A DNA stretch of 62,218 nucleotides, counting the filler, from Hausera hauseri (lineage: Eukaryota): NCBI GenBank assembly GCA_046269625.1. It is 11 parts of 11 records of this genome, joined end to end, with 100 filler letters (N's around TTAATTAATTAA, not from the genome) between each part and the next. Parts side by side here need not be neighbours in the genome. Positions count along the whole stretch, not along the records: positions 32,077 to 38,682 come from JBJURY010082214.1; 10 more parts are not named here. The stretch is one strand, 5' to 3'. The notes beneath the pieces are model-generated. The model saw nothing but the letters and a program-made list of their open reading frames with translations. It ran no database searches and was not told where the DNA came from. The position numbers and the translations under genes are program-made. Shown piece after piece: positions 3,692 through 54,207 of the stretch (positions within the stretch are counted from its first letter, which is position 1; each line of letters begins with the position of its first letter).

Positions 3692-4786
3692 ATGGAATCA
3701 TCACCTACCATTAACACTACTGACCGAAATACCTCCAAAATATCACATTTGGCTTTCAACCAAAAATCTTCGATTGTTACCACGCCATATTCTTTCAGTA
3801 GTTATGCTTCTACAATCTCGCCAGTCAAACACACTTCTCAGTGCACAGAATATTTTATTGACCACGAACAGTCTAACAAAACGTGGCTTAGCTTCCACCA
3901 ACTCTGGTTGCAATCAAACAATATCACTGATCCGCTAACCAAGGCCCATAACCTGCTTTGTCTTCTTCTAACAACGGTAAAAACGGTAATTCATGATTTG
4001 CTCGATATCTTCCAGAAACCTGATCCATATACGCATCTTTACAACGCAGTTTTGAAACTTACCGAACCATCTATGGACTCAATAATTTACCGTTTCTTCA
4101 ACGACAATGCAATGGGGGAGCAGAAACAATATGATTTTCTTAGAACGTCACTCGTGCAACTCCAAACACTTGGCGTAACGAAACAACATAACGCCGATCT
4201 TTTGCGACGTTACTTCCTAAATGCATTGTCCATACAAATTAGGGCCTTGCTTACTGTCGTTGAAGAATCGACAACATTGGATAAATTAGCCAAACTGGCG
4301 GATAAAACATATGAAATTATGAACATACACACTCAACCAGTCATTTCTGCAACAGTTTCTACCAAAAATGTTTCACTTGAATAGCAGTTAAACGAATTAC
4401 GCGTCGAAAATGCAGCACTCCACCACACCATCAACTTTATCAATGATAAATTGAATAATCTTTCTTTAGAGCGTCGTAATGTGCCTCCATCTAATCGAAC
4501 ACGTTCTCCTGCTAGAAGTCGAACACCGTCACCTACGAGGTCTCTCGTATGCTATTACCACACCAAATTTAGTAACAACGCAAATAAGTGTTGCTTAGGG
4601 TGTAAATATTATTCGCCAAATCTAGATTCAAGTAATATAATTTGCGTCTATCATTCAAAATTCGGTCCTAATGCTAGGAGTTGTATTACTGGCTGTACAT
4701 ACAAAACTAACAAAAACTATTCCATCGACAGACGTACCAACATCTCTAATAGCAGCCGTTCTAGTTCACCAATCCAAAAAAACTGA
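3692..4786 (+). pseudogene. gag: gag of CsRn1-type element, premature TAG at 4382-4384, two CHCC fingers
   Basis: ORFs 3428-4384 and 4451-4786 are in the same frame; CYYHTKFSNNANKCCLGC and CVYHSKFGPNARSCITGC fit Cx2Hx9Cx3C. Confidence 0.88.
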
Positions 4787-7844: not shown

Positions 7845-10800
7845 ATAATGAATTTAGGGGATCCAAACCTGATGAACCAAGTGCGCATAAAAACATCGGC
7901 TTTTGTGTCCGTGTTAGTACTCCGTAGAGGGACGGCTTTTGGCCATCGTGAGGAATGATCCATCATGGTTGAAATGAACTGATGACCGTTGTCAGTGGGA
8001 ATTGGGCCGATAAGATCAATATGTACGGACTCGAAACGCGATGTACAAGGGCAATGATACAGTGGTTGCTTCAAATGCTTGATGGTTTTAAATTTTTGGC
8101 AGGTTACACATGCCTTAACTTACGTTTGCACATCAGAAAGCATAGTCGGTCATATTACTTGCCGGTGAAGTAAACGAAAAGTCGCCTTAGCACCAGGATG
8201 GTGTAGTGAATGTACACTGTTGAATGCCTGTTTTTGCAAAGCAGGAGCCAAGATTATTGTAGCCTGTCCAGGATTAGATGTGTCGAAAGCTATGCCGTCA
8301 ATAATGTTGTTAGATCAAAAAGATTTAAGCATGTCCGTAGGTAGTTGGTTTTCTTGCAGCTGAGCTTGTGTGAAAATGGGCCGAAATTTAATGAAGCTAA
8401 CAGATATGGAAAGAAAATCAGCGACTAAGTTATTTACATTGTTAATGTGTTTCATCTAAAAACTGAACGTCGACAAGTATGAGATCTGTCGTTCTTGTCG
8501 AGTAGATGGGTGTTTTATTCTCATGACATTTATTAGGGGTTTATGGTCCGTTTGTATGATGAAACGTCGAGCAGTGAGTAAATGTGAGAAGTGTTTTAAG
8601 TCAAGGACTATCGCTAGTAGTTCTAGGTCGAACGTGGAGTATCTGGTTTCAGAGGTGTTAGTTTGCGTGAAAAGAACTCCAGTAACTGATTTTCACCTTC
8701 ATGAATTTGATGCAGTACGGCGCCCACAGCAGTGGTGGAGGCGTCTTTTGTGAGGATTAGCTGTGCATCATGTTTGGGGAAAGCTAATATTTAGACAGTT
8801 TTTAAACCTTATCTTACCTTTTTGAATTTGTTAACTAGTTCAAATGTCCATTGTATTGACTGGTGTTGTTTTTAACTACTGAGATGAGCAAATGGTGCGG
8901 TAAGTTCGGAGCAGTACGGCACATACCTGTGAACGAAGTGCAAAGTGCCCTAAAAGCACCTCATTTCTGTTGTTGTTCGAGGTAGTTGCACGTTTTTGGG
9001 GCTTCAACTCGATTGGGCTGAGGTGAGTGACCTTCAGATGAAGTGATGTGACCACGGAAATTTATACGTTTCTGGAAAAAGTTATATTTGGCAAAATTAA
9101 TCTGCAGGTTATTCTGATATCGGCGTTAAAAGATTGATCTTAGATGTTCTTCATGTTGTTTGGTTGAGAAAAAAACAAATAATATGTCGTCGATGTAGGG
9201 GTGAGCATATGGAAAATCTGAAAGAATAGCAGCGATGTGATGATGAAAGGTCTGCGCCGCGTTCCGTAGGCCGAATGGTATATATAAATATTCGTAAAGG
9301 CCGAAAGGTGTTGTAACGGCGGTGTTTTTGATATCTTCGGGTACCACCGCGATTTGGTGATAAGCCTTAGCCAGGTCAATAGTTGAATAGATTGTGGTGG
9401 AATTGTAACGATATAATGTCTTTTATCAAGGGTAAAGGTACATGTCCATTACAGTCAAAGAGTTTAACTTCAGGTAATCACTACATGGTCGCCACGATCC
9501 ATCCTTTTTTGAACCACATGCAAAGGAAAAGACCACGGAGACTTTGATCGACGTACAATTCCGATACATTCAAGGTCAGCGAAATGGGCTTCGATCGCCT
9601 GTCTGCGTCTGAGCGAAAGTGGTCGTACCTTTTGACAAATGGGCCTTTGGTTTTGCGTAATGATGCGATATAAAGTATTATTTTCTGGTGTGAAAGACCT
9701 ATCTTTCTTAAGTACACGAGCGCATTATATAATAAGGTACTGTTGCAAATTTTTCGGCAATTGTGAAAGATCAGGCGGAATGGTTGTGTCATGAATAGTT
9801 GAAATTTAAAAGGTACTCAGTGGCTTAACATCTTTACGATTTTTAGATAGATTGGATGTGCCGAAAAATGGATAAGAGGTATTGATTCTATCCGATGTGC
9901 GTATTATGTTAAAGAAATCGCACTTGTCATTGTTTAATCTTGTTTTGTTGTCAGCATCGTATTTGATTAATTTACGAAATATATTGTGGTTATTAGAAAT
10001 TGCTGGTTTAATAGTCGGTAATTTCAAAATAGACTTCCTTGGGCCGTTCGTTCGTTTGATGGTTGAGACACTATTCATCAGTTCGGTTTGATTTTTATTA
10101 ATGGTGTTTTTCAAACAACGGTGTTTACAATCCACCAGGAGATTGTAATGCGGCAGAAAATCGGACCCAAGGATAGTCGTTTGGACATTTGCGACTGTAA
10201 ATGTCCAATGAAATTTAGAGGAGAAATTTAGAAAGGTGAAAGAAAGTGTAGAAGTTCCGGAAACATGTAACGGTTGTCCGGAAGCTGTGAAGAGATTTTA
10301 CTTTAGATGTAACGTTGTAGACGGGAAAGGTGAGTGGTAGAAGTGATATTGCTTCAACTGTGTTGATAAGGAAGTTTATATGTTGGGGTCTCGGGGCGAT
10401 GGTAGAAGCTTTCAACGTGAACACAGCGAGAGAAATTTTTCGGCTATTAGCAAGTGGAGAAAAGCCTTCGCCAGTGCGTGCCGAAAGCTCTGTCAGCGAA
10501 ATTAGTTTTTAAAAAAAGGAGAAACAGGGTGGCTGTTAGAAGGCAGGTTTGTGCGTTCGCCATTTGCATGATGAGATTTGTTGTTAAAAGTGCAATCAGA
10601 GATGCATCTGCGTGCATTGTCTGAATTTTGCATGATATATGCAAATGACGTTGTCTGTATGGTATCTTTGATTATAAAATTTGCACCCTAGGTGGCATTT
10701 TTGTGCATTATTATCAAACCTACCGTGGTAATAGCAAATCAGTGATCGTCCGGTTGAGGATGACCCATTACGAGATATGGAACGGTTACGGTCAGGAATG

Positions 10801-11593
10801 AAACCATCCCCCCGTCGAGTCAATGAAATCTCGTTCATTTTATTATTGATATTACTTATTGTTGTTTGTAAGGCCGCATTTTCGGCTCGTAGTTGATTTA
10901 AATGCTATTTGAATGTAGCGTTGTTGGTAGTAACGACTGCAGGAATGGGTGGTTGGGTGTGTACATTCAAAGCCTCGTATGTTTTGTCTGCCATTTCGGC
11001 TAATTTATCAAGCATCATCGGTTCTTCGACGACAGTAAGGACCTATTTTGTATGGGCAGTGCGTTCAGGAAGTAATGTCTCAAAAGATCGGCATTATGTT
11101 GTTTAATGACGCCAAGTGTTTGAAGTTGAACGAGTGAAATTCTAATGAAATTTGACGGTTTTTGCGTCCCCATATCATTGTCGTTGAAAAACCAATGAAC
11201 TATGGAGTCCGTAGATGATTCGGTAAGTTTTAGAACGGCGTTGTAAAGATGGGTGTATGGATCAGGTTGTTGGAAGATGTCTAGCAAATCATGAATGGAC
11301 GTTTTAACTGTAGTCGGTAAAAGACAACGTAGGTTATGAGCTTTGGCTAGAGAATCAGTAATACCATTAGACTGCAGCCAAAGTTTGTGAAAACTAAGCC
11401 AGGTTGTGCTGGACTTTTCATGATCGATAAAATATTCTGTGCGCTGGGAAGAAGTGTATTTGGCTGGCGGAACGGAAGGTGTATAAGTGGTGAAAGTAGA
11501 TGGTGTGGTGACAGTCGACATGTGGTGAAAAGCAAAATGTGATGGTTTAGAGGTAGTCTTGTCAGTGGTGTCAATGGTGGGTGAAGAGTCCAT
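7845..11593 (-). mobile_element. CsRn1-type Ty3/Gypsy copy 2 (heavily decayed, truncated inside integrase)
   Basis: Gag MDSSPTIDTT...LWLQSNGITD, CYYHGRFDNNAQKCHLGC; [24 protein letters not shown]; IN VHIDLIGPIP; colinear with copy 1. Confidence 0.93.
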
Positions 11594-11849
11594 GCCACAA
11601 CGTATGCGCAAATGTACATGGATAACAAGATGTGAGGTTGAAGGAGATAAAAAATTGTAGACATTGGTATTAGCGAGTGGTAGATTATTAAGAGTTAAGT
11701 AAAAGTCTGAAAGAGCAGTAAAATGTACATATTTGTGTAAGACAGTGAGTCTATATTGTATGTTATATTGTGCGTCAGTATTTGAGAGTTATTTAGTAAA
11801 AAGTAAAGCGAAAGAGGTGTCACAGACCCTATTGAGTGATGTTCTAACA

Positions 11850-13448: not shown

Positions 13449-13458
13449 GCTATATAAG
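13404..13458 (+). promoter_or_regulatory. poly(dT) tract plus TATA box (TATATAAG) upstream of the 584-aa ORF
   Basis: T42 at 13404-13445, TATATAAG at 13451-13458, ATG at 13530; same layout upstream of the RNR gene. Confidence 0.6.
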
Positions 13459-13529
13459 GCGGTCCCTTCCCTCATTCCCTCCGGACCTTTGGACGATCAA
13501 CACCAAGGCTCTCTCGTATTTTTTCAAAG

Positions 13530-15284
13530 ATGTCAAAGCATTCGCGGGTAATTTCAACAATGAGATGCAAGTTGATCAGTTATCAAAGAAGAGTGCGCTT
13601 ATGCCAAACTCGAGTAACGTGCCCTCGATGTGACCACATTTTGTTGCCTTCGCAATTTGTAGACCATCTCTTGGATGAGCACGATATTCAAATTAAAAAT
13701 GCATGTCCGTGGTGTTTGGGTCATCATACATGGAAATCTAGAGAAAAACATCTTCACGAGGATCATTTGTCGCTTTGTTTTAAATTGTTTATCGATGCTT
13801 ATCGGGTATCGATACCACTCGGAGAAGAGGTACCAGTCAGAGAAGAGATACCATGCAATCGCGGCCAACCCATCTTTGACATGACTCCCATGTGCCCAGA
13901 GAGGGATTTTTTCGGCCATCGGAAATTGACCCACCTCTGTCCGGAAGCGTACGATCGATTCGGTGGTAGCAGCGACGACGACACGGAATACATGTTCCTC
14001 GGCCACGTGGGACTCGCCGCTCACTACGTGAAAATGTACTCGGAGGAACCCTCCTCCTCCTCCACCGAATGGTTCCACGTCATGGTCCGCGCCGAGACTT
14101 TCGACAATTTCGTGTCCGCTTTTCGACACTACGACGGCCAGGCGACCCTCTTACCGTTTTCCTGTTGGTGCGACGGCGGAAGGAAGAATCGGAAACCCGC
14201 GGAACACAGGCACATGATCATCGTGGCCGACGACGGAAAGGATTTCATGAAGCGGTGTTGGAATAAAATCAAAAATAAATTTGGGAAATGCAGACGCATC
14301 CAATCCTTCATGCACCTGATCAACACGATCGGTTACGTGAGCGGTCGCCGATCTTGCTGCCAGTTTACCTTCGAAGGCCGCAGGTCGTCCGACAACCATT
14401 ACTACATATTCTGCTCCTTGCCCAAATCGTTTAAGAAATGCTTGGCCCTCTGCTACCCCGACGGTTTGAAGGCGGTCTTCACCCAAGAAAAGGGAAGTGT
14501 TTCCATGGCAGACGTTCCGCACGCCGTCAGGGTCCACGAGCAGTGGAAAATTCCGGTGGGCGATCTGCTCCGCGACGAAGACGAGAGGAATATCGTTTTG
14601 CCCCTGCAGAAGCACTGGAGACCGTCGGCGATCGTCGAGTACGATCCCAAATTAAAGGACCGAACCTTTTTACACTTGATGAACGGTAAAGTCTGGTTGC
14701 TGGAGAAAGATCCGTCCCTCGAAGCCTTGGACGAGAGCGAGTGGGTCGAGGAACAGGCCAAGTCGGGCAACCGATTCTATTCCATCGTCGAGAACGAATG
14801 GTGGACGCCCACCAAAAACCAGCAAAAGTGCCTCAACGACATCCAATCCCTCCGGGATCGTGCCAGGGTACTGGAATGTCGGCTCAGCGTCCAATCGAGA
14901 GAGGCTCGACACCACGAGAAAGCGAATCGAGATTTGAGAAAGAGGGAACGGCAATATCGGGAAGAAATCGACAGATGTCGTGTGGAAATCGCGGAATTGA
15001 AAGTGGAAAACGACAGATGTCGTGTGGAAAACACGGAAAACGCCAGATGTCGTGTGGAAATCGCGGAATTGAAATTGGAAAACGACAGATGTCGTGCGGA
15101 AAACGCGGAATTGAAAGTGGAAAACGACAGATGTCGTGTGGAAAACGCGGAATTGAAATTGGAAAACGACAGATGTCGCGTAGAAATTGCTCGTCTAAAG
15201 GTTGAGCAGAGGGAAAAACGACTCGTCGAGGAAAATGCTCGGCTCAATAACCTCTTGTGGATAAAGAGGGCGCGACGAGAATGA
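13530..15284 (+). CDS. 584-aa intact, intron-less protein: C2H2 and C2HC zinc fingers, putative HUH-endonuclease-like core, C-terminal coiled-coil repeats
   Basis: CPRC-x11-HLLDEH, CPWC...HLSLC; WFHVMV / EHRHMIIV / HLINTIGYVS arranged like rolling-circle motifs I-III; 14-aa repeat ENDRCRVE(I/N)AELK(V/L); ORF is solid, HUH call is inference. Confidence 0.75.
   Translation: MSKHSRVISTMRCKLISYQRRVRLCQTRVTCPRCDHILLPSQFVDHLLDEHDIQIKNACPWCLGHHTWKSREKHLHEDHLSLCFKLFIDAYRVSIPLGEEVPVREEIPCNRGQPIFDMTPMCPERDFFGHRKLTHLCPEAYDRFGGSSDDDTEYMFLGHVGLAAHYVKMYSEEPSSSSTEWFHVMVRAETFDNFVSAFRHYDGQATLLPFSCWCDGGRKNRKPAEHRHMIIVADDGKDFMKRCWNKIKNKFGKCRRIQSFMHLINTIGYVSGRRSCCQFTFEGRRSSDNHYYIFCSLPKSFKKCLALCYPDGLKAVFTQEKGSVSMADVPHAVRVHEQWKIPVGDLLRDEDERNIVLPLQKHWRPSAIVEYDPKLKDRTFLHLMNGKVWLLEKDPSLEALDESEWVEEQAKSGNRFYSIVENEWWTPTKNQQKCLNDIQSLRDRARVLECRLSVQSREARHHEKANRDLRKRERQYREEIDRCRVEIAELKVENDRCRVENTENARCRVEIAELKLENDRCRAENAELKVENDRCRVENAELKLENDRCRVEIARLKVEQREKRLVEENARLNNLLWIKRARRE
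14964..15200 (+). repeat. Coding tandem repeat, 42-bp unit (two heptads), about 5-6 copies
   Basis: Repeated GAAAACGACAGATGTCGTGTGGAAA(A/T)CGCGGAATTGAAA(G/T)TG, one unit shortened in frame. Confidence 0.95.
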
Positions 15285-16196: not shown

Positions 16197-16571
16197 AGGT
16201 CCTCGTCCGGAAAAAACTACGAGCTCGTCGACGACGAAACAATAAACACCACAAGACCCGATATGAAAAGGAACCCAACCCAGAATCTGGCCGAACATTT
16301 GGATTAAAATTAAATTATGACCCAACCCTGAATCTAAAGGGAATTTATAAAAAAGATGTGGGTAATGTCGGGTGAGGGTGGTAGAGTGACTCTACTGATC
16401 GAATATTTGGATTTAAAATTAAATTATATGAAAATGGTGGTNNNNNNNNNNNNNNNNNNNNNNNNNNNNNNNNNNNNNNNNNNNNNNNNNNNNNNNNNNN
16501 NNNNNNNNNNNNNNNNNNNNNNNNNNNNNNNNNNNNNNNNNNNNNNNNNNNNNNNNNNNNNNNNNNNNNNN

Positions 16572-17522
16572 AAATTTATGGTCATCTTTTTTAGACATGA
16601 CACCGCATTTTTGGTATTCTCCCACTTTTTTCTCAAAAAAGTTTGTTTTGCCTTCGAGACTTATATGTTCCATGAAATCAAAAGGGTTGTCCACATCAAA
16701 AAACTTGTCGCAATTTAATTCCACCAGTAACCTGTCGGCTACAAACTGAATGTACCGTTTCATCAATTTGGTGTTCATCCCGATTAGATCCACTGGTAAA
16801 GCTTCGGTGAGAAACTCTTGTTCGATTGCAACCGCGTCCGCTATTATCTGGAGAATTCTTTCTTTGGACGGTTTGTTAACCAAATGGTTGTTAAATATCA
16901 GGCATGCGAAATCACAATGTAAGCCCTCGTCTCTGCTGATCAATTCGTTGCTAAAGGACAGACCAGGCATCAATCCTCGTTTCTTCAACCAGAAAATAGC
17001 CGCGAATGAACCCGAGAAGAAAATTCCCTCCACGGCGGCAAAGGCTACCAATCTCTCGCCAAACGAGGCATCATTGTTAATCCAAGAGAGAGCCCATTCC
17101 GCCTTCTTCTTCACACAAGGTAGGGTCTGGATCGCGTTGAAAAGTTTTTCTTTTTCTTGGCTGTCCCTGATATACGTGTCGATGAGAAGGCTATACATCT
17201 CCGAGTGCACGTTTTCGATAGCTATTTGAAATCCATAAAAACAACGCGCCTCGGAAATTTGAACCTCGGCCGAAAATTTCTCAATCAAGTTTTCATTGAC
17301 GATCCCATCGCTGGCTGCGAAAAATGCCAAGACGTGGGAAATGAAATGCTTTTCCCCAACTGAAAGATTTTCCCAGTCACTTAAATCTTTGGATAAATCT
17401 ACCTCTTCGGCGGTCCAAAAGGAGGCCTCGGCTTTTTTATACATTTGCCAGATGTCTGGATACTCGATCGGAAATATTACAAATCTATGAGGATTTCTAC
17501 GCAGCAGTGGTTCCTCGTTCAT
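16572..17522 (-). CDS. RRM2: Class Ia ribonucleotide reductase small subunit (R2), intron-less, no N-terminal extension; last few codons fall in the N gap 16442-16571
   Basis: [16 protein letters not shown]...[34 protein letters not shown] (radical Tyr), [30 protein letters not shown]; all di-iron ligands present. Confidence 0.97.
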
Positions 17523-17551
17523 TCTTAAATAAATTCAAAGTATCTTTGGGG

Positions 17552-30560: not shown

Positions 30561-32089
30561 GCAGTTCATGGAGACAGCAACCAACATTGTCGGATTCAAA
30601 CATTTACATATACACTTTTAAGATTATTTTATCTTTTTTGTGATACATCTCTATTTCATCCACTCAATATCTACTACTCCCATGGCCCATTCCGTTTATC
30701 ACATTCTTTTTGATATCTGAGATTTCTGAGGTTAATGTAAAAAAAAAAAAAAATACAGATTTTAAACTGGTTTTCATATCAGTGTCACGCTTTGTTCATA
30801 CATTTGAATGGTGGTGGTAGATCTCCGTGTGACTGTGAGTTATGAGTTCTAGGCAGCTGATGCCACGGTCAAGCAGTTATTGAGTTATTGTAAGTAAACT
30901 GTTACCAATTGTTGGGTACACTGGAAGGTATATACATTTTAATAAAGAAATTTTCATTATAACATAAAAGGCGTGTAACATTGCTAGGTTTATATAGATA
31001 ATACCACTTCACTAATTATAAAAAGAGGGAAGGAACAAATACACATTTTAAATGTACGTAACTCATTTCTACCTATAATATAAGCTTGTGTCTTGGAAGT
31101 GACATTTGACACAATGAATGCATTTTATCATAATGTCACAGCAAGAAGGTCTTTCATTATTTTATTATCATACTAATTTTCGTCTGGCTTTTCAAATTAC
31201 TAAAGGTAAATTCTTTTGTCCTGTCTGATTCAGATATTTCCAAATGCCAAACTAGCTGACCCTTATCAGGTCGAGACACAGCTAGAATACAGGAACAATA
31301 GAATAAACTGTCGCGTGAAACAGCTTTCAAAATTAGGAGTGGTCGTTGCCGCTTTAAATGTCACCGGCAATCAGCTGTGTTATAGATAAGCACATACTGA
31401 TGTTCTCTATTTCTTTTGTGCTTTCATATTCTTTCTCATCAGGTGACAAGACGAATTCTGGAAAATTTAAAAACCAATTCATGGGGTTTTTTTTTAAAAT
31501 TATGTTTAATTTTTACAGAACTTGTGATGATATATTACTCATTAAAGTTAACAGGATGTTGCCCGTAACCATATGTTTACATGTGATGATAGAGACACTA
31601 ACATTTCTGTAGACCATATATTCAATGTTTTCCAGAGTATGTGATTATATATTTCATAATGGAGACAGTATGGAAATCTTGAGTGTGGAAAATACAAACA
31701 TTCTTACTAGGGACAGCACAGACATTCGTACTGCAGACAATACAGACATCCTCAATAGAAACATTGCAATTATTGTAGCTGGGGACAGTGCTGTCAGAGG
31801 CAACACAAATTCGTGTATTTCTGTAACAAACAAAAAATATACAGTTATTTCAAACTGGAGTCAGATTATTCATCTCATGGAAAGAAGGCACACTATATTC
31901 CTGTTTAGTTTAGTCAAAGGGTCGACATCTTTTCACATGGATACGTATCCATAAGTGCTCACACTACATTCCTGATNNNNNNNNNNNNNNNNNNNNNNNN
32001 NNNNNNNNNNNNNNNNNNNNTTAATTAATTAANNNNNNNNNNNNNNNNNNNNNNNNNNNNNNNNNNNNNNNNNNNNTACTAGGTGGTAG

Positions 32090-32760
32090 CTTGATACGTC
32101 TAAAAAATATGGCATGGAAATTAATTCACACAAGACACAGTTGAGGCAAATAGAAACAGAGGATTCATATAATCTTTTAAATTAATAGACAAAACCTAGA
32201 AATAGTTGCATTTCAAATATCTGGGATCCATGTTAAGTGATGCTGAAACATAACCAGCTAAAAGAGCAAAATAGCAGTTTCAGTTGTGGCAAATGGGCTA
32301 ATCTGGAGAGATAAATGTATCAATCCAAAGACAAAGTTGATGCACACATATTTCTGTATGCTTGCATAGTATAGATATTAACTAACAAACAAGAAAGCAA
32401 GATAAAATCAGTTGAAACAAGAATGATCCTTAGACAGTCATTCATATGTCATGTTACAAATATTGAGACTGAGACGGTGTAGAATATAATAAGAAGAAAT
32501 GCCAGGCATACAAAGACCTGATTTCAAAATTAAAGGACAACAAAACTGCAGTTTTAAGGTTGTGTGACAAGAAGCACTTACCTGACCAACACCTTGCTAA
32601 AATAGAAAGGAAAAAGAGAGGTAAAAACAACATGCAATGAAGAGATAATGTCTGGAAATCGACATGAAAAGTCCCTTAAAGGATTGCAAAGGTTTGTTCA
32701 AGAGACAACAATAGAGAAATACAGTACAGTTCAGCATCTGACTGTTAATGCCCTAATAAT
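32090..32760 (+). mobile_element. Decayed RTE-like LINE fragment
   Basis: KYGMEINSHKT, FKYLGS, IWRDKCINPKTK in broken frames. Confidence 0.6.
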
Positions 32761-32831
32761 AACTTACTTTATGGCACACACAAAGGAAGTTATTTTTTCA
32801 TGTTCAGATTGTTTTCTAGCTGGAATGGAGG

Positions 32832-33236
32832 ATGAGATCCATGCCCACAAGGCATACATTTCCACATGATGACTTATCTCCAAATGCTTTAAAACGTACA
32901 CTTATACAAGACACAATAATTTTTAAGTTATTAGATGATAAAGACAAAGTAATTTCTAACAAAATAATGACAGCAATTACGAAAACAAATTACGACGCAG
33001 AGGTACCACCTAAAACTAACATAATCAACCATAAAATGACACCTAAACCCACACGAGCGGTGTATAAATATTCACGATTAGAAATAATATGCATAGGATC
33101 AATAACCCCTGTAGTTTTGATAATAATATTGTTAATAATGGTTAAAATTTTATACAAGCGACACAAACCAAGAAGCTGGGTTAGAATCGATATGCGAAAT
33201 CTAACGAATCCGTTAGACACAGATAACCCTAGCTGA
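32832..33236 (+). CDS. Membrane-anchored ORF remnant in the 3' internal region of an LTR retroelement
   Basis: Single hydrophobic helix IICIGSITPVVLIIILLIMVKIL followed by basic YKRHK tail; the true 5' end is probably lost near 32866. Confidence 0.5.
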   Translation: MRSMPTRHTFPHDDLSPNALKRTLIQDTIIFKLLDDKDKVISNKIMTAITKTNYDAEVPPKTNIINHKMTPKPTRAVYKYSRLEIICIGSITPVVLIIILLIMVKILYKRHKPRSWVRIDMRNLTNPLDTDNPS

Positions 33237-33305
33237 CGATTACAGTTAGGGATTGCAATATACGCAACCCTAGGTAAAGAGATAACCAAACGACATAGAG
33301 TTATC

Positions 33306-34673
33306 TTGTGTAATAAAAATAACAATAGTAAAACCACAACGATTACCTCCCTGATTTGTCTGATAACCGTTGTGCTGTGTCTAAGTATCGTGATAAATAA
33401 TGTATTGACTCTTGTTTTTACAGTCTCAACTGCTACGTTCCACCAGATCCAGTCTATCAACCGCTCGAAACATTGGTACAGTAACGTCAAGAACCACATG
33501 ATCAATGCTAACCCCTCTAATCAATACTTCGTATCCCACAATGATAACATGACTAGTTTAAACTATCCACAGACTCCGCAAATTCCTAACAATATTAAAG
33601 GATACAGTATGGCAAATCGATCTTTCGCCATAATGCAACTCACTAAAGCTACGTCGTTTCTGCTAGAGGACATAATAATATTACCCGATCGGTTCCATTC
33701 TATGAACCTGTATGGTGTGGTGGGTCAAATCCAGATAAAGACCACAGACAAAAAAACCTCCATCAAAGGCGATCTAATTAATGTCGATCCTGAACACGCC
33801 TTAGCGTTCGACTATACCTTTCTTCAAACCAATAATTTCAAAATCCGTTCATGCACAAATCGTGTAATACTGGCAATAGAAATAATTAAACGAGAGAAAT
33901 TTTACCCCACCCTACCAGAAGGAAGATGTTTCAATCTCCCAGAACCTGACTATGTCAAGTACAAAAACATTCCCTACAGAAGATTGGAAAAAGTCACAGA
34001 TAAGGACATGGTCATAGCAGCCGTAAATCTGGCCTATGACCAGTGGAATCAGCTTCAACCCATCGAAGCTTCGATTCTAACGTTAAACGGAGATACTTTA
34101 CTATATGGAATTATTACACCGAGGCAGCGTATCAATAATTTCGACACGCATATAACTGGCCTCACAGAATCCAGTATTAATAATCAAATCGATCCCATGG
34201 ATTTTTATCGGAAGGTGACAGAAGTAATAACGGACAAAGTGATTATCGGAGCCGAAGTGGTTGAAATGGTTGTGAACCATTTCAAATGTCCAATCCGACG
34301 GATAGCTGGAGTGCGTGATATATTATATCACGAGGATGTTATCCGTCGGTACCAGTTATCATCTAATACTTATAAAGAATTGGCCCGAAAGTTTTATGAT
34401 ACCAAGGGCTTCTCTCTTCGAAGCACTGCCTTAGCGCAGTGCTATCAATCCATCTACAAGCAACTAAAATGGTCTGATGAGTATATTACTCAAAGTACGG
34501 CCTCCGATACGGTGCGAAAAGCACCAACAGCATCACAATGCGGAAGAAAGCGAAAAATCCAAGTGGACGAAACTATTATACTAGACGAGGAGATATACGA
34601 ACCAGATTCCATACGGTACAAATCCAGAACCACAGACAAATACATCCACATGCCTCTAATGTTGGATCAGTAA
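33306..34673 (+). CDS. Accessory ORF: degenerate retropepsin-like segment plus REX4/ISG20-like DEDDh exonuclease fold, apparently catalytically altered
   Basis: EASILTLNGDTLLYGIITPRQRINNFDTHITGLT...FYRKVTEVITDKVIIGA...IAGVRDIL parallels REX4 (RVSIVN..G.VLYD..VKP...V.DYRT..SGI...V..LLK.RILVGH...RDT); ExoI D-x-E not visible; first ATG at 33498. Confidence 0.6.
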   Translation: MCNKNNNSKTTTITSLICLITVVLCLSIVINNVLTLVFTVSTATFHQIQSINRSKHWYSNVKNHMINANPSNQYFVSHNDNMTSLNYPQTPQIPNNIKGYSMANRSFAIMQLTKATSFLLEDIIILPDRFHSMNLYGVVGQIQIKTTDKKTSIKGDLINVDPEHALAFDYTFLQTNNFKIRSCTNRVILAIEIIKREKFYPTLPEGRCFNLPEPDYVKYKNIPYRRLEKVTDKDMVIAAVNLAYDQWNQLQPIEASILTLNGDTLLYGIITPRQRINNFDTHITGLTESSINNQIDPMDFYRKVTEVITDKVIIGAEVVEMVVNHFKCPIRRIAGVRDILYHEDVIRRYQLSSNTYKELARKFYDTKGFSLRSTALAQCYQSIYKQLKWSDEYITQSTASDTVRKAPTASQCGRKRKIQVDETIILDEEIYEPDSIRYKSRTTDKYIHMPLMLDQ

Positions 34674-34709
34674 TAAATTGAGGACAATTTCTCAAAACCC
34701 CCGTCGAGT

Positions 34710-35433
34710 TGTTGATGAACTTCGTGTCTTAATAACTTTGAACTTTGTCTTAATAACTTTACCAACGAATGATCATGTGTAATAACTGTGCAATGATTTA
34801 TTTTATAAATGATCACGTATTATATAACTGATCGTACTATGTAACGTATATTTAATTTTGTAAAATGGAAACTGACATGTGATTTTCCTTTGTGATTCAT
34901 GATTTTTACGTGATTCTAACGGAATTTTTCATGCGAACGTTGTTTTATTTATATTATGTCATACAATTGGAATACTATATAAAGTGTGATTTTGTTCATT
35001 AAAATCAGAAACTTTTTATTGACAATGACATCACGTAAGTGTACTCATTCCTTCTTTGTATATGCTTGTTAAATTCTTGATTGTTATATGGTATTTGAAT
35101 AGAGTTATCATTTTATTTTTCAAGTATTGTTGTGTTTTTATCAATTAATAAAAGTAAATAAATAAGTTTCAATAATATTGGAAATTCTTCGTCCAGGTAA
35201 AAGCGACCTGACGGAGGCCTCATTAAAACCCGTTTAACGTATAAGATAGTAAACCATAAGTCAATAAACGAGATAAAATATTCTTGAGTATTCTTGTAAC
35301 ACATCACCTACTCACGATTAAGTAAGATCATATACGACTCCTACACGTTAAGACGCAAATTGTTCTACTCAATAGTTGACGAAAAGCTTATTAAATTGAT
35401 ATTATAGCCCGACCAATATTGAGTAACTGAACA
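34710..35433 (+). repeat. Long terminal repeat (~724 bp)
   Basis: TGTTGA...TGAACA termini; preceded by PPT-position sequence TTGAGGACAATTTCTCAAAACCCCCGTCGAGT; TATATAAA ~34976, ATTAAA ~34998; followed by a PBS. Confidence 0.75.
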
Positions 35434-35436
35434 AAC

Positions 35437-35454
35437 TGGTTCCGTGACCCGGGA
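35437..35454 (+). promoter_or_regulatory. Primer-binding site (tRNA-His- or tRNA-Glu-like)
   Basis: TGGTTCCGTGACCCGGGA begins 3 nt after the LTR-terminal CA. Confidence 0.75.
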
Positions 35455-35584
35455 TTACATAAATTTATTAGGACTTTAGGTTAAAGAAAGCAATATAACC
35501 ACTAGAAAAGGAACAGTATACCAACGAGAAGAAAGTATACCCTTTGGATTAGAATATATAGATAATTTAAGCGAAGAAGAACCC

Positions 35585-38500
35585 ATGGCAAGTAATAAAG
35601 TAGAACAGGTGATTCAGTCTAAGGCTGACTTCACCCTCCCCATGAAGAAGTTTTCCGGTAAAGAAGATATCCAAGATTTTATGATGGAATACGAAGTATA
35701 TTCCAAAAGTTTTGGCTGGGATGACAAACAAAGAGTAGAAAGGTTACCCCTTCATTTGAAAGGGACGGCTCTTATGGTTTATTTCCAATTACCTGAAGAA
35801 GATAAGAAAGACTGGAAGGAAATTAAAGATAAGTTGCCTCAAAAGTTTCTAATAGATCCCTCTGGAAAGGGGAGAATCGAAGAATTTATAAGACGGAGGC
35901 AACGGAAAGACGAATCCGTCCAGGACTTTGTATGTGCATTGGAAAAACTTGCAGCGAGAGCATACCCCGACGTAACGATACGAAACAATGCATTGTTAGC
36001 CCAGTTCCAATACGGATTAGAAGAAAGATTACGAACAATAATTTCTCAAGCAGACCCGCCTACGTTCCAAGAGGCAATAAGAAAGGCACGAAAAGCCGAA
36101 CGGGATGCGGAACTGTATAGGTGGAATAAATCCAGAAACAATAATAATGGCTACGATAAAAGACGAAATAATAGTACACAAAAGTATCAACGGTACGACA
36201 GAAATAGAAGCCCATCACAAACATCAGCAACCGAAGCTGAATCAGATGGAGAAAAGAAAGTGAGATTCAATTTACGGAATGACGGAGAAAAAGCAAGTTA
36301 TAAGAAGAAATATAAGAAAGATGGAAGATCATTACCCAGTATAGATTCTGAAGGAAGATTAAAATGTTTCAATTGTAATAAATATGGACATATAGCGAAA
36401 TCATGTAGATCACGCAAAAGGGACTCTTCAAAGCCAAATGATAAAAATAAACAGAGGAAAGATAATGTATCAGCAACGTCGGACGAATCGTCCGACAGAG
36501 AATATGAAACAGATGATAGTGCCAGTGAACGAGAAGTCAAAAAGAAAGATAAGAAGAAAGAAAGTATTAACTATATAAATGATTCATTACCCTCACGTAT
36601 GAAGAAACAGCTAGAAATAGAAGTAAAGGAGTATAAAAGACAACAGCAAAGGTTGAAAGAGAGTAATATTTACATGGTAGGTGATCCATCGGAGAAACAG
36701 ACATCTCGCAAAGGAAAAAAGAAAAGTAATAAGAAAATAATTGATGTAGAAGTTGGATCAAGAGAAACGTCGACAGAGAGGAAAGATGTAGTAAATGAAA
36801 AGAAAAGAGGAAGAAAGAAGAGTAACATCAGCACACCCTCACCCTCATTTAGTCCGGGAGAATCCCAAGACATGCCAATATTTGACGAAGCTATATTAGA
36901 TCAGGTAATAAGGAACCCTGGTGTAGACTTAGACGAAGAAGATGACATTATAGAAGCATTAATGATTATTGATCCTAATAATATAGTCGATATAGACAAA
37001 ACAACTACGACGATATTGAAGATAATCACCAGTAAAATAACGGCAAAAAGAATGAATGAAATTCTACCCCAATTGGTATTACTAGCCCAAGACACTAGCC
37101 CCGTAAGAGAGATGGCTAGAACTGTGTTAGCCAAAGCTGCGGAGGAAGAAAAAGGAAGAAATGAAGCCATTAGGATAACAATAAAAGAAGGAAACCAAGA
37201 CATGAGGGTCATCCGGATGAATGAAATTGATGACATACAAACCTTACGAGAAAGGATAGAGGAGCTGGAACCATTTTATCAAGCCAGTCCCTATGGATTA
37301 AGTTATTGTGGAAGGACACTATACGGTTACGACAGACTACTAAGAATCGGATGCAGAAGTGAGAATTATAATCCAATAAATATAACTGAAATACATCCAG
37401 AGGCAAGAGCACAAGCAACTGTGGAAGAAATCATAAGAGAAATGGAACCACGGGAAGTAGAAAATCCCATGGGTGATACGCAAGACGTTACGGTCCAAAC
37501 GGAAGCCAAGAGAAGAGGCAGGCCAAGAGGGACAAAGATAAGCGACATTCGCAATAGGAAAGATAGAAATGAAGAAATAGTAAGACGTTTATTACTAGCA
37601 GGAACAGATGGCACTCCTGAATCGGTGGACATAGATCCATTACTAAGAACGTTATTGGCCAAGATGCACACGTCATTTGCCTCTTTTGACATGCAGGCAG
37701 TAATCCCAGATGAAGTATTTAATACGTTACGTAATAATATGCTGTAGACAATAAGTAGACAATTCTACGAGAATCTAGAGGAAGAAAGGATAAATGAGTT
37801 ACATTAAGTAGATATTTTGGAAAGGATGTTCGCTACAAGCATCACACGAGAAAAAACCCAAACAGCTATATATTATTTTTTATATAAGATAATAGTAATT
37901 AACCATCAGACTCAAAATCTAGAGGACATTGAACGAAACATAAAGACAGTGGTAAAAATTATGAAAGATACTCTGGGAAATTGGGCTCAATGTAGAGGTG
38001 GCTGGCTGAACAGCCTAACGACTAATATAGATAGGACAGAAGAACGAGAAAGAATAAGAGATAAACCAGTCGGGACGCAACCAACTACGTCTCGATCAGG
38101 CATAACAGGTATGTCAATAATGGCGATTATACAAATCCTACTAATAACATCATTACTAATGTCAAAAGCCGTAGGTATAGTGGCATATGACTGTTCTAAA
38201 CCCAGTGAAGGACAAAAGTATTCTCTAGTTGACTTAGAGAAATGCCCAAAAGCCGACCCAGAGTAATTGACAACTACTGGTGGCCTTACATATTGGGTGT
38301 ACCAACAGTCTGAATTCATAAAGGCAAAGATTAGAGAACGTTACGTGAAAAGATCTTTCTTTCTATTCAATTGTGCCTATTATTCAGGAAATTCAGCCAT
38401 AATTGAGACTACAACACCTTTCGAGCCAATAATAATATCCCGAGCAGAATTTCAGGATAAATTTAAGATTGACATCATAACTATACAAAATGCACATATA

Positions 38501-38682
38501 CCTGCAGTAAGAAATAGAATAAAGTACATGAGAATTTTTAGAGCTGGAAGGATAGATAAGACAATGGAAGGAACCTGTAAAGGAGTGGATTACGATGTCG
38601 GAGGCACCATAGCACCTAGAACGGTAGCCATAGAAGATTATCAGGTACAGCTGAAAGAATACGAGGGATTATTCGATTCCCA
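35585..38682 (+). mobile_element. gag: Single reading frame Gag - ubiquitin-like domain - AT-hook - signal peptide - chuvirus-like glycoprotein; three in-frame stops; runs off contig end
   Basis: ORFs at 35585, 37817 and 38267 are in one frame; Ty3/Gypsy capsid (KFSGKEDIQDF...RRQRKDESVQDF), CCHC CFNCNKYGHIAKSC (36365-36406), hydrophobic MAIIQILLITSLLMSKAVG then IVAYDCSKP...YSLVDLEKCP. Confidence 0.82.
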
Positions 38683-49918: not shown

Positions 49919-52900
49919 GAGTAGTTTCAGCTGACGTGGTATCGTCAATAAAGAAAGCTGGTTTTAAGTTATTAATATGGACTGGTTGTTCTTTGTTGTC
50001 CTTAAGAATGACCGCGTGATGGGAACGAAGTGAAAGAAGTTTATAGGGGCCCGTGTACCGTGGCTGAAAACCGACCGGAGTTTGGTTTTTTAACCAAACG
50101 AATTTAGCTGAGTAAAGGTCGTTAGGAATATATGGTCGCTTACTGTGTAGAACTCTGCAAAAAGTGTCTTTGCTAATGGCAACAAAATGTTCCTGGGCTG
50201 CCCGAAGTGTTTCATCAGTAGGTGAGTTGTCTCGCTCAGTTAACTCGAAAAGGGCACGTAGTGGTGTGCCAAATAGGGCCTCCGACGGGGAGCAACCGGT
50301 TTATGTGGATAGGGTGTTGCGCCATCCGAGTAAGACAAAAGGTAAAAGGTTTACCGATTGGGGGTTGTGTTCAGCTAGGATTCTGAGGGAGGTTTTCATT
50401 GTACGATGAAAACGTTCTAAAAGGCTGTTCGACTGGAGGTGGTAGGGTGTTGTGTCGATGTGAGATATGCCCAGTCGATTTACTAATGATTTAAAGAGAC
50501 TCAACTCGAATTGTGGGCCTTGGTCGGTGATGGTGTGTTTGGGTGAGCCAAATCGGCTGAGCCATACACGTATAAAGGCGTCAGCTATATACCCAGTGTT
50601 TGTGGATTGAAGTGGAACTGCTCCTGGACATCTAGACGAATGGTCCATTATTGTGAGGATAAATTGGTGACCGTTGTCTGGTGGAAGAGGACCGACGATA
50701 TTGAGATGGACAGTATCAAAGCGTGACGTACAAAGAAAATGATAAAGTGGCGGCTTTAGTTGTTTAGTGATTTGGAATTTTTGGCATGCCGCACACTCCT
50801 TAGCCCATGTCTGCACGTCTGTTTTCATTGATGGCCATGTAACTTGGCCTTTTAAGAGGTGTATGTGGCCTTAGATCCTGGATGGTGTAAGGCATGAATA
50901 TTTGTGAAGGCTATTTTTTGGAGAGATGGAACTAGTATGACTTTAGGCCATCCAGGGTCGGTGGTATCGAATGCCACGCCATCAATGATTTTGACAGATT
51001 TATAAGAAGTGAGAGCTTCATCATTCGGTTGATTCCGTCGAAGCGTCTCATTATCTAGAATTGGTTTAAAAGTTATCGAGTCAACTGAACGTGACAAAAA
51101 ATCAGCCACGACGTTGTTTATGCCATTTATATGTTTTATTGTAAAATTGAAAGTTGACAAATAGGATATATGTCTTTCTTGACGTAGAGAGGGGGATTTC
51201 ATGGTAAAAATGTGTAGCAGCGGCTTATGGTCCGTTTGAATTGTGAAGGTGCGTGATACTAAGAGGTGTTTAAAATGTTTGACTACGAGGACTATTGCTA
51301 AAAGTTCTCTATCGAAGGTAGAGTACTTTTGTTCTGTTGTAGTAAATTTTCTAGAAAAGAACTCTAAAGGTTGATGCGTGTTATTTTTAAATTGGTGGCG
51401 TACTGCGCCTGCGGCGATAGTTGATGCGTCTGTTGTAAGAAAAAGTTCTGATGTAGAATCTGGATAGGCTAATATTTCTACTGTTTTGAGATTTGTTTTT
51501 AGGTGTTCGAAAGCATTAACAAGTTCAGGTGTCAAATAATAGGTTGTTTCTTTTGACCAGAACTTAAGGTAGCGAATGGAGCGGTTAAGGTCGAACAATG
51601 CGGCACGTATTTATGAATAAAATGCAAAGTACCGAGTAAGGAACGCATTTCTGAAGTTGTGCGTGGTAATTGAATGTTTTTCAGTTGAATGATGCAGTCT
51701 TGCTGTGGAGCATATCCGGTTGGAGTAATAATGTGTCCGAGGAAATTGATTTTTTTTAAAAAGGAGCATTTTGCGAAGTTTATTTGGAGAATGTTTTGCT
51801 GGAGTCGTTTGAAAACGATGCGTAGATGCTCAGTATGCTGTTTAGGTGATGAAGAGGCAATTAAAATATCGTCGATGTAGGGATATGCGAAGTCTAAGTC
51901 TGCAAGGACGGTGTCTATATGCCTCTGAAAGGTTTGGGCTGCACTGTGTAAGCCAAATGGCATATATAGATATTCAAAAAGTCCGAAAGGAGTTGTTACT
52001 GCCGTTTTTGGAATGTCAGCTGGTGCTACAGGGATTTGGTGGTATGCCTTATGGAGATCAATGTTTGAGAAAATGGTGGAGCCGTGAAGTCTATGTAGGA
52101 TGTCATTGATTAAAGGCAAAGGGTAGGCATTTATGGTTGTGATCTGATTCGGTTGCCTGTAGTCACCGCATGGGCGAAAAGATCCGTCCTTTTTAGGGAC
52201 AACATGTAATGGCGAAGCCCATGAAGATTTCGATCTTCTGATAATGCCTAAGCGTTGTAGTTCTGAAAATTCGGCTTCGACTGCCCGCCTGCGACGTGGA
52301 AATAAAAGTCGTACCTTTTGTCGTATTGGTCGTTGGTGTTCTGTAACAATATAATGAAAGTGTGCATGGCTGGTTTAAAGGTTTTGTCTTTTTGCAACAA
52401 ACGAGTACAAGAAGAAAATACATAGGATTGCAACTCCAGTGGAAGTGATGATAAAATGGTTGACGGTGATGCTCATGTTGCGATTTGCTTAGCGTCGGTT
52501 AGGGAAAATGTTGCACTATCAAGACTAGGTGGAATTTGGTGAAATATTTTGGAATTGAAAATGGTGTTGCGAGCGGTTTCGTTAGCAAAAGGTGTCAAAG
52601 AGTTGGCGTTATCATATTCGTCAACTGCATTATAGTAGTCTCTAAATATGGGATGATTATAATAATACTTTAAATTAATGTGGTATTTTAAGAACAGGTT
52701 TACAACCAGTGATCGTCCGTTCGGTCGTCGAAATGATATTCACGGAATTAGGTTGTTCAAATTGGTTTGAGTTAATCAAGCAGCGGCGTTTGCAATCTAC
52801 CAGTAGATGGTAATGGGACAGAAAGTCTGATCCCAATATATACGTGTTTGGACATTGGTAACTGTAAATGTCCAATTGTATGTGCTTTTTTGTGTGATAA

Positions 52901-54207
52901 TGTAAAGGTAATATTGGTAGTGCCGAAGATGTTTAATTCTGCCCCTGATGCAGTGAATAATTTTTGTGTAAATGTGTTTTGTTATGTACCTCATGTTCAG
53001 GAGGAAGCAGAGAGACAGCTGCTCTTGTGTCTATGAGGAAGTTAATGTTATGTTTTATTGGGATAACAACAGTTGCCTCCAACGTAAAAACTGCAAATGT
53101 TGTGTTTCGGCTGTCATTTTGCAAAGTGGTACCTTCGCTAGAGATGGCCGATAACTCTAGCGGCGTTAATAGTTTTTTTGCTGTGTTTGGTGTTGTTTGT
53201 TAGTTGAGGGTTGCCTAGATTCATATGTGTTAAAATTGCAGCCTCGTAAACATTTTATTGCCTTAGTGTTGAATTTAGAATGGCAGATGCAAATGGTGCT
53301 GCTTAACTTGAATTTAGGTTCAAAAAATTTGCATCCGATGCAACATTTGTGTGCATTGTTTTTAAAATTGGTATGGTAATAACAAATCGACGATCGTACG
53401 GGCGATGGCGATCGTCTGTTGCGCAGTGGTTGTGTATTGGAATGGGCTGCACCAGGGAAATTTCGTTGTGAGAGTCAGTTGGTTTAACTTAGTGTTTATG
53501 CTGTTGATGGTTTCTAGCAGCGCTTTATTGTCTGCTTTAAATTGAGCTATTTGTTCCTGCAATGTGTTTTGTTGTGTATCGTATGGTGTGGTGGTAGTAG
53601 AGATAAGTTGGGGAGTATGCATCTGCAATAATTCATATGATTTGTCAGCTAACTCAGTTAGTTTGTGAAGATCTAATGATTCTTCAACCACGGTTAACGG
53701 ACCCCTAATTTGTAAAGGTAGAGCATGGAGAAAATAACGTCTTAAAAATCTGCGTTGTGTTCCTGTTACTCCGAGTGCTTTCAAGTTGTTTAGAGCTATT
53801 TGTAAGAATTCGGAGGGCTTTTGATTGCCTGTGGTGTTCTCATTGAAGTAGCGTTGAATAATAGAATCCAAAGACGGCTCTGTAAGCCTAAGAACAGCGT
53901 TGTATAGCTCCTTGTAAGGATCAGGATGTTCGAAGAGTTGTAAAAGGTTGGGTATTTAAGTTTTAATTGAATTTGTTAGATAGTAGAAAAGACTATGGGC
54001 CTTTGGAAGAGATTCGGTGATGTTTGCAGATTGCAGCCAGAGTTGATGGAATTGAAGCCAAGTTTGGCTTGAGTTCTGACTGTCAATGAAGAATTCGTTA
54101 CAGTGATGGTCGAAAGGGAGGTCTGAAGGTGTGACTGTACCGGCGCAATATAATATCGGAATAGATTTTGGCTTTTCCGTTGTATCAATCGAAGATGGAG
54201 AGTTCAT
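49919..54207 (-). mobile_element. CsRn1-type Ty3/Gypsy copy 3 (gag-PR-RT-RNase H-IN with GPY/F motif), decayed
   Basis: Gag LWLQSANIT, double CHCC; FLIDTRAAVSL; DLHKAYHQIP, MPFGL, YPYIDD; TTDAS, YSTFDREL; TDQGPQF, ERFHRTMK; PRYTGPYKLL at ~50040-50065. Confidence 0.95.

Follow-up and report, generated by a model that had tools for sequence, protein, structure and literature searches.

The window analysed here is a stretch of 62,218 nucleotides (nt) from Hausera hauseri (GCA_046269625.1), made of short contigs joined by N spacers. We studied an open reading frame (ORF) on the contig at positions 32078–38682, which ends just ahead of a segment resembling a long terminal repeat (LTR). Its product is predicted to join an N-terminal AlkB-like double-stranded beta-helix to a C-terminal ISG20-like exonuclease fold, with neither the iron triad of the first nor the catalytic residues of the second. 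The ORF is likely the final gene ahead of the LTR in a multi-copy gag-env-pol gypsy element of the Burro type. Its features and immediate borders are the following.

33237–34673, plus strand: open frame from stop to stop, 478 codons (478 amino acids, aa).
33405–33446, plus strand: candidate 3′ splice acceptors, with AGs ending at 33423 and 33446.
33438–33929, plus strand: predicted AlkB-like double-stranded beta-helix (model residues 1–164) without a conserved iron triad, from the predicted model and a profile.
34005–34484, plus strand: predicted ISG20/REX4-type DEDDh exonuclease fold (model residues 190–349), from the predicted model and the family profile.
34485–34673, plus strand: tail of low model confidence, containing a short basic cluster and closed by the stop codon (predicted local distance difference test, pLDDT, below 50 at residues 352–391 and 404–411).
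34674–34709, plus strand: 36-nt spacer with an LTR-adjacent motif resembling a polypurine tract (PPT), common to five related loci (L001–L005).

The first-pass annotation of this DNA had described an intact ORF of 455 codons ending 36 nt before the LTR on the same strand. The open frame, its strand and its distance from the LTR are as described, the last base of the stop codon being 34673 and the LTR-like segment opening with TG at 34710. The count of 455 codons, on the other hand, begins at a TTG (33306) and not at an ATG; the first ATG of the ORF is at 33498 and gives 391 aa.

An AlphaFold model of 33438–34670 was obtained with a mean pLDDT of 81.5 and a predicted template modelling score of 0.75, the linker and tail being disordered. 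In structure comparison of this predicted model, residues 190–349 aligned with ISG20 at Z 17.6 (root-mean-square deviation, rmsd, 2.6; 156 residues aligned), and Foldseek returned an ISG20-type match at an expectation value (E) of 1.2e-8. A profile of 16 relatives matched ISG20L2 (E 1.6e-24), ISG20, SDN1 and PAN2. The C-terminal half, which had been likened by eye to REX4/ISG20 DEDDh enzymes, is thus predicted to fold as an ISG20-type DEDDh nuclease. Pfam assigned the window ORF alone to no family of nucleases or proteases, its sole match being MRP-S23 (E 0.012), and phmmer found 0 matches in the PDB up to E 10; when the full-length protein was searched in the Atlas, RNase_T clusters scored 0.90 at most and are a lead only.

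The fold is kept, as judged also by the conserved non-catalytic columns of the nuclease domain retained in the window ORF, and the active site is not. By alignment, the five catalytic positions are occupied by Ala, Asn, Met, Leu and Leu. The ExoI D-x-E, already noted as missing, is replaced by Ala at 34020 and Asn at 34026, and the ExoIII H-x4-D by Leu at 34416 and Leu at 34431. The ExoII Asp, at a position which we take from REX4-type enzymes, is Met at 34266 by alignment, with a Glu one residue earlier and a register uncertain by one. As judged from these residues, all five of them lost, the lineage of the window protein is catalytically dead as a DEDDh exonuclease.

The N-terminal half had been regarded as a pseudo-protease because of a 15-mer recalling the closure of retropepsins, a reading that the model does not support. 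The 15-mer (33801–33845, residues 122–136) lies inside the beta-helix domain, no D[ST]G motif is matched in the ORF (33438–34670), and no aspartic protease occurs among the 50 listed structure-comparison rows or the Foldseek rows shown, lists which are not exhaustive of families. Instead, the N domain (block pLDDT 79–98 over residues 1–150) resembles AlkB-type proteins in the same comparison. Residues 1–164 aligned with ALKBH6 at Z 13.3 (rmsd 4.5, 151 residues) and the domain with ALKBH7 at Z 11.6 (rmsd 2.9, 143 residues); OsALKBH1 (Z 11.3), ALKBH5 (10.9) and Ofd2 (10.7) follow, AlkB rows being the five best. Foldseek concurs on both domain folds of the window model.

The iron triad of AlkB-type dioxygenases is H-x-D...H. 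Column conservation, with positions placed by secondary structure, revealed no conserved H-x-D...H in the N domain across the family. His predominates in only one well-filled column (20 of 25 rows), where the window ORF has Tyr, and the single H-x-D of the window ORF (residues 34–36) sits in a poorly shared insertion that is missing from the relative P0001. The N half is therefore best modelled as an AlkB-like double-stranded beta-helix without iron triad. Given the folds and the absent residues, a pseudo-AlkB joined to an ISG20-like pseudo-nuclease, that is a double pseudo-enzyme, is the best description of the protein, and we consider the predicted two-domain AlkB-like and ISG20-like architecture very probably correct.

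Word-index homologue searches recovered 1 and 4 proteins only. An exhaustive HMMER search recovered 28 proteins at E ≤ 0.001, many of them matched across both halves. P0001 is 55% identical to the window ORF over 414 aa; the match begins about 25 codons upstream of the ATG at 33498, whose Met corresponds to a Val in P0001. Pfam RNase_T was matched by 15 of the 28 family proteins at E ≤ 0.01, 12 of these above the cut-off. A profile built without the window ORF and P0001 still matched both window domains (E 5e-32 for the C domain and 5e-16 for the N domain); in reversed-sequence controls for this profile the N domain reached E 0.017 and the C domain was not listed.

Loss of catalysis concerns part of this family. 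The full D-E-(D/E)-H-D set is found in 19 of 29 rows of alignment A5, with Glu at the ExoII position in 15 of these 19, and the other 10 rows are dead, the window ORF and P0001 keeping 0/5 catalytic residues. In an alternative alignment, A2, which includes three fragments, the set is intact in 17 of 30 rows. Since most relatives keep an intact active site, ‘dead’ applies to this lineage and not to the family. On the tree the label needs three changes and one origin is possible, with long branches flagged. The intact relative at locus L007 (see below), modelled with a pLDDT of 93.1, aligned with ISG20 at Z 20.6, Ofd2 at 10.8 and ALKBH6 at 10.3, and in BFVD it matched viral exonucleases, plant-virus replicases and named Fe2OG/alkylation-repair proteins. 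No longer fused forms (1524–4350 aa) were found among 3364 candidates, which is weak evidence, and scans of viral contigs gave no confirmed match for the nuclease family or for the reverse transcriptase (RT) of L007. One dead member, P0019 (870 aa), carries a C-terminal RING finger.

To the region 32700–34760 we could assign 1659 and 212 contigs from two public runs, most of them less than 95% alike, a depth that is not a copy number. The flank at 32208–32825 is covered by one low-depth contig with zero differences (single-copy-like), the bin 32838–32906 by no contig, and multi-copy cover starts in the bin 32907–32975. The sequence from there on, covered by many diverged contigs, is thus a repeat and not single-copy host DNA. 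With the element-like context in relatives, the ORF cannot be seen as a single-copy host sequence unlinked to an LTR: it is multi-copy and element-borne.

The differences between copies were subjected to a partial codon test. Of the 22 listed differences within 33424–34670, third codon positions account for 16 (p 1.8e-4); synonymous changes number 15, against an expected fraction of 0.22–0.27. The preceding stretch 33237–33423 has 4 listed differences, none at a third position and 1 synonymous (small n), and the upstream membrane frame 14, with 6 third-position and 5 synonymous (p 0.31), which speaks neither for nor against a coding role of that frame. The ORF is under coding constraint over 33424–34670. 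Together with the match to P0001, this test shows that the dead version is being kept.

The constrained part starts at the candidate acceptors. The AG ending at 33423 has 10 of 12 pyrimidines upstream and would begin an exon at codon position 2; the AG ending at 33446 is in frame for an upstream AUG. Homology to P0001 begins at these acceptors, and no ATG follows directly. In the relatives, a T-rich YAG lies 0–4 nt before the ATG in 15 of 19 accessory ATGs compared with 21 of 1050 other ATGs, and in 8 of 11 accessory ATGs when L001–L003 are left out. These signals suggest that the ORF is probably made by splicing, its start codon coming from an upstream exon or a spliced leader that would be joined at 33423 or 33446. 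The flatworm spliced leader ends in AUG and can supply a start codon (PMC9851317; for this and all papers cited below, statements refer to the excerpts available). The pattern suggests that several 3′ ORFs are expressed through splicing, much like those of complex retroviruses.

A metagenome scan with eight intact members yielded 7 loci (L001–L007), and the nuclease gene has its own ATG in all seven. In five of them (L001–L005) it is followed by the PPT-like motif and TGT, as in the window, and therefore stands just before the start of the LTR. In the two others it lies behind an env-pol polyprotein: in L007 it comes next, at 335 nt, and in L006 one small ORF intervenes. The 3′-terminal accessory position first proposed for this ORF, last before the LTR-like segment, is thus shared by relatives. 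The polyprotein frames of L006 and L007 exceed 3000 aa and contain env, protease (PR), RT, RNase H (RH) and integrase (IN), with env (PF24664, E 9e-84 and 5e-94, respectively) ahead of PR-RT-RH-IN in one frame. L006 also shows weak matches to ubiquitin (E 0.008) and Rad60-SLD (E 0.03); to its helical region before env Pfam assigned no family, and the only matches there, to dynein light chain, were weak. L002 and L004 carry TRAF-like and RING ORFs upstream of the nuclease gene.

Several further observations were made at these loci. The 3′ accessory run of L004 (300–4640) and L002 (54–2478) consists of a RING-H2 ORF, an unnamed ORF, a C3HC4 RING ORF, a TRAF-like ORF and a coiled-coil ORF. The full TRAF-like protein comprises RING, zf-TRAF, coiled coil and MATH, and most ORFs of the run have a splice acceptor right before the ATG. 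Between env and RT, the L006 and L007 polyproteins hold more than one aspartyl-protease-like stretch (2–3 by Pfam). Extra type I membrane modules without Pfam family, one in L006 (7820–9022) and two in L007 (3661–4230 and 7963–9189), sit between env and protease and after integrase; they are possible receptor decoys or attachment proteins.

Downstream of the ORF, the contig of the window carries the following features.

34710–35433, plus strand: LTR-like segment of 724 bp, TGTT...AACA; a 521-nt contig without differences covers 34686–35206.
35437–35454, plus strand: primer-binding site (PBS), its first 12 nt complementary to the 3′ end of tRNA-His(GUG) at 11 of 12 positions.
35585–37747, plus strand: gag frame, Ty3 capsid-like, with a CCHC knuckle and a long extension (PF19259, E 3.5e-5, below cut-off; PF00098, E 8e-5, above cut-off).
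37808–38020, plus strand: C-terminal part of a BCL2-like domain (PF00452, E 3.4e-4, 21.6 bits, below the curated cut-off of 31.4).
38102–38682, plus strand: start of a chuvirus/Monjiviricetes-type (gB-like) env after a signal-like hydrophobic segment (PF24664, E 0.0027).

The assignment of 34710–35433 as an LTR relies on TG...CA ends, a preceding PPT-like motif and the PBS and gag that follow, not on an LTR pair; a second copy was found in none of the 20 repeat families shown, leaving a single LTR-like copy on the contig. The tRNA-His 12-mer was taken from supplement 1 of PMC13524379 and compared by hand, and no tRNA gene was found in the window. Identity with Troyka was considered and rejected, the window segment ending in TG...CA and not CG...CG (PMC12440569). 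The window gag is 29% identical to that of L001 (E 4e-18), and its env to those of L007 (37% over 196 aa, E 6e-35) and L006 (30% over 298 aa, E 1e-30). This env is broken by an in-frame stop and then ended by the contig end, in-frame stops of the window copy ending at 37747, 37807 and 38266. Because there is a single LTR-like segment, the order 3′ end, LTR, 5′ end, also found in L001, is read as a tandem copy or an assembly collapse. As side observations, the gag extension at 37160–37420 looks ubiquitin-like by eye, where L006 has its weak ubiquitin match, with no Pfam ubiquitin match in the window, and two donor-like GT sites occur at 35585–35620, just past the gag ATG, their phases fitting the acceptors at 33423 and 33446, respectively.

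Upstream of the ORF lies a membrane frame.

32907–33236, plus strand: 5′-truncated frame with a Thr/Pro-rich stalk, one transmembrane (TM) segment (about 33084–33140) and a 32-aa tail, by hydropathy.

The cassette had been taken to start at 32866 with a single-pass membrane ORF. The ATG at 32866 opens an 8-codon frame only, and the 5′ part of the membrane frame runs into the flank, with in-frame ATGs at 32832, 32841, 32967 and later. The single hydrophobic segment is confirmed (Kyte-Doolittle 2.98); a separate ORF is doubtful. Contigs from other copies run from this frame into the nuclease ORF, so that it belongs to the element; it ends 187 nt ahead of the first candidate acceptor. The L006 and L007 polyproteins likewise have a terminal TM segment, located 94 and 84 aa, respectively, ahead of their stops. 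From its position and hydropathy, the membrane frame is probably the 5′-truncated C-terminal end of an env-pol polyprotein.

Elsewhere in the window, an intronless ORF at 16419–17534, on a short contig beside repeats, resembles by eye the small subunit of ribonucleotide reductase and could be viral or Polinton-like. A GC-rich ORF of 608 aa (13458–15284) has a 14-aa coiled-coil repeat near its end, and decayed fragments of ordinary gypsy-like gag-pol were recognized by eye at 3413–7070, 9806–11788 and 50301–53955, two of them inverted across a contig gap.

What could a dead two-domain protein do for such an element? The first-pass proposal was a captured, possibly dead nuclease serving as an RNA-binding or anti-silencing factor. 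The dead and element-borne parts of this proposal stand, given 0/5 catalytic residues and the multi-copy cover. By analogy, we lean towards the view that the protein acts as an RNA-binding counter-defence factor. The ancestor would have taken up two parts, an ISG20/REX4-type nuclease from the host and an AlkB-type domain. Intact relatives may trim RNA 3′ ends in the manner of ISG20 or SDN1, on small RNAs, double-stranded RNA or element by-products, and the window lineage may have kept the fold to bind such RNA and shield or sequester it without cutting. Binding of uncut RNA would be expected because catalysis is lost and the fold kept, as in Maelstrom or EXD1. The modules found in its company (apoptosis, ubiquitin and TRAF) speak for manipulation of the host. 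In planarians, Burro elements are abundant and PIWI keeps them under control (PMC8532177).

The main alternative, possible but clearly less favoured, assigns the same two-domain protein to the element's own replication, acting on genomic RNA, primer tRNA or cDNA ends in the particle. DEDD nucleases process structured RNA 3′ ends, 3′-end processing of element RNA was proposed for the DEDDy ORF3s of rotifers (PMC5408684), and the gene context is element-like in 7/7 loci, all of which would suit such a role. Catalytic loss with the frame kept, repeated or early and seen in 10/29 rows, better fits binding or an arms race, and the TRAF- and RING-like cargo beside the gene in L002 and L004 is of a host-manipulating kind.

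A doubtful alternative is that RNA binding was lost in the lineage and that the protein is a decoy for protein interactions, for example one that mimics, in the nucleus or nucleolus, host REX4/ISG20L2 or an AlkB protein. In its favour are the loss of both active sites, the basic cluster of the tail and the nature of the co-cargo domains of the element group, which are protein-interaction modules. Against the decoy, both folds come from nucleic-acid-processing families, the conserved non-catalytic nuclease columns are kept and no partner was identified. It is equally doubtful that counter-defence extends to the more ambitious scheme in which Burro-type elements would be complex proviruses with a (trans-)spliced 3′ cassette and this protein would be dedicated to suppressing small-RNA defence, its dead AlkB-like domain recognising methylated RNA and the nuclease domain trimming it in intact lineages or capping and sequestering it in the window lineage. 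If true, this would be a transposon-encoded anti-piRNA (PIWI-interacting RNA) factor in an animal.

Rather improbable is a read-through origin, in which the ORF would extend the membrane frame: the two share one frame with a single TGA (33234–33236) between them, and contigs of other copies bridge both. The own ATG in all 7 loci and the differences in 33237–33423 argue against such an extension, and a second hydrophobic stretch at ORF residues 35–53 would complicate its topology. The version that pairs a stand-alone membrane gene with a fusion of nuclease and degenerate retropepsin can be set aside as highly improbable: a motif likeness by eye and an in-frame ATG (32967) that could start an 89-aa single-pass protein are outweighed by the missing D[ST]G, the alignment of the N domain to beta-helix proteins over 140–151 residues and the ordinary aspartyl proteases in the pol of L006 and L007.

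Several points weigh against the preferred reading, an element-borne, AlkB-like and ISG20-like counter-defence protein. Its AlkB likeness is one of fold only, at 6–9% identity; plain cupin-type rows and other 2-oxoglutarate (2OG) enzymes come close behind (Z 9.3–9.9), and an Atlas search with the N domain of the relative P0005 gave no usable match. The window and L007 models are not independent because most alignment rows are shared, nor are the 7 loci independent cases, L001–L004 being close kin and all sharing one dataset prefix. The codon test covers only the 40 best-supported of 696 differences, each treated as a single change. The acceptor criterion was relaxed after the data had been seen; under the stricter rule applied first, 7 of 19 had an acceptor within 16 nt, compared with 4.7% of random places within 15 nt. 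Between the membrane frame and the L006 and L007 tails, BLAST detected no similarity (best E 3.8). The window contig has no pol and one LTR, so that the link from the ORF to gag and env rests on the LTR-like segment and the relatives, and the contig order of the 3′ ORF and the downstream gag and env may reflect assembly collapse.

Among known systems, the C domain is closest in profile and structure to human ISG20 and ISG20L2, Arabidopsis SDN1 and PAN2 (PDB 1wlj, 7yw5, 5z9x, 4czw), from which the window protein differs by its 13–20% identity, its missing catalytic residues and its other N-terminal partner. More distant fold relatives include the pseudo-nuclease Exuperantia (Z 10.6 against the window model). 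The DEDDh domains of arenavirus NP and coronavirus ExoN are active enzymes; the former appears as a weak Atlas row (0.85), the latter at Z 10.2 against the L007 model, and neither is a close homologue. Maelstrom and EXD1, dead DEDD folds that retain RNA binding (PMC5408684), are likewise distant fold relatives only.

Mobile elements offer two precedents. In bdelloid rotifers, the DEDDy ORF3s of Juno/Vesta and Athena/Terminon are likewise captured DnaQ-like 3′–5′ exonucleases behind pol, and a DEED motif variant seen there is common in the window family; these ORF3s are RNase D-like, catalytically intact and replace env (PMC5408684), whereas the window family is DEDDh, coexists with env, has an N-terminal beta-helix and includes dead lineages. 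A DnaQ-like exonuclease is accordingly listed among known accessory domains, citing Rodriguez 2017 (PMC6338049). The AlkB/2-oxoglutarate-dependent dioxygenase (2-ODD) ORF of giant gypsy elements in Phalaenopsis is also an AlkB-type accessory ORF, for which a role against the RNA surveillance of the host was proposed; its product closely resembles plant N6-methyladenosine (m6A) demethylases and is active in vitro (PMC9289625), in contrast to the remote fold match, absent iron triad and fused nuclease fold of the window protein in an animal element. A fused AlkB-like and DEDDh 3′ ORF was not found in the literature searched, and Grohme 2018, figure panels or Repbase may annotate such an ORF; ‘exonuclease’, ‘RNase_T’ and ‘AlkB’ have 0 occurrences in seven supplements of PMC13524379.

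The closest system as a whole is the giant gypsy-like Burro/GYPSM1 of planarians, which has a gag with CCHC, ubiquitin/SUMO-like and BCL2-like motifs and then a mononegavirus-type env ahead of pol (PMC6431247). The window contig shares the gag with CCHC and the env behind it, with a BCL2-like match below cut-off between them. A Burro-like order of a weak ubiquitin-like match, env, PR, RT, RH and IN in one frame is seen in L006, and TRAF/MATH and RING cargo in L002 and L004. GAG-ENV-POL elements of gB type were reported in nematodes, bryozoans and flatworms by Chary and Hayashi (PMC13524379), and the start of the window env resembles by eye the env rows of Smed_errantivirus_1-6 in the same source. 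The element itself thus makes a flatworm host likely. Two differences stand out: the excerpted Burro description names no exonuclease or AlkB-like ORF, and the TRAF and RING ORFs of our relatives lie 3′ of pol and not within or upstream of the polyprotein (PMC6431247). Few counter-defence proteins are known from animal transposons, though evasion of piRNA and RNA interference (RNAi) is expected. The family described here provides a concrete candidate in a Burro-like group, with natural active-site-intact and dead members, and RNAi knock-down is routine in planarians. The Burro class, DEDDy ORFs in rotifer LTR elements and an AlkB ORF in orchid gypsy elements were thus already known; to the Burro cargo list the present family adds RNA-processing folds.

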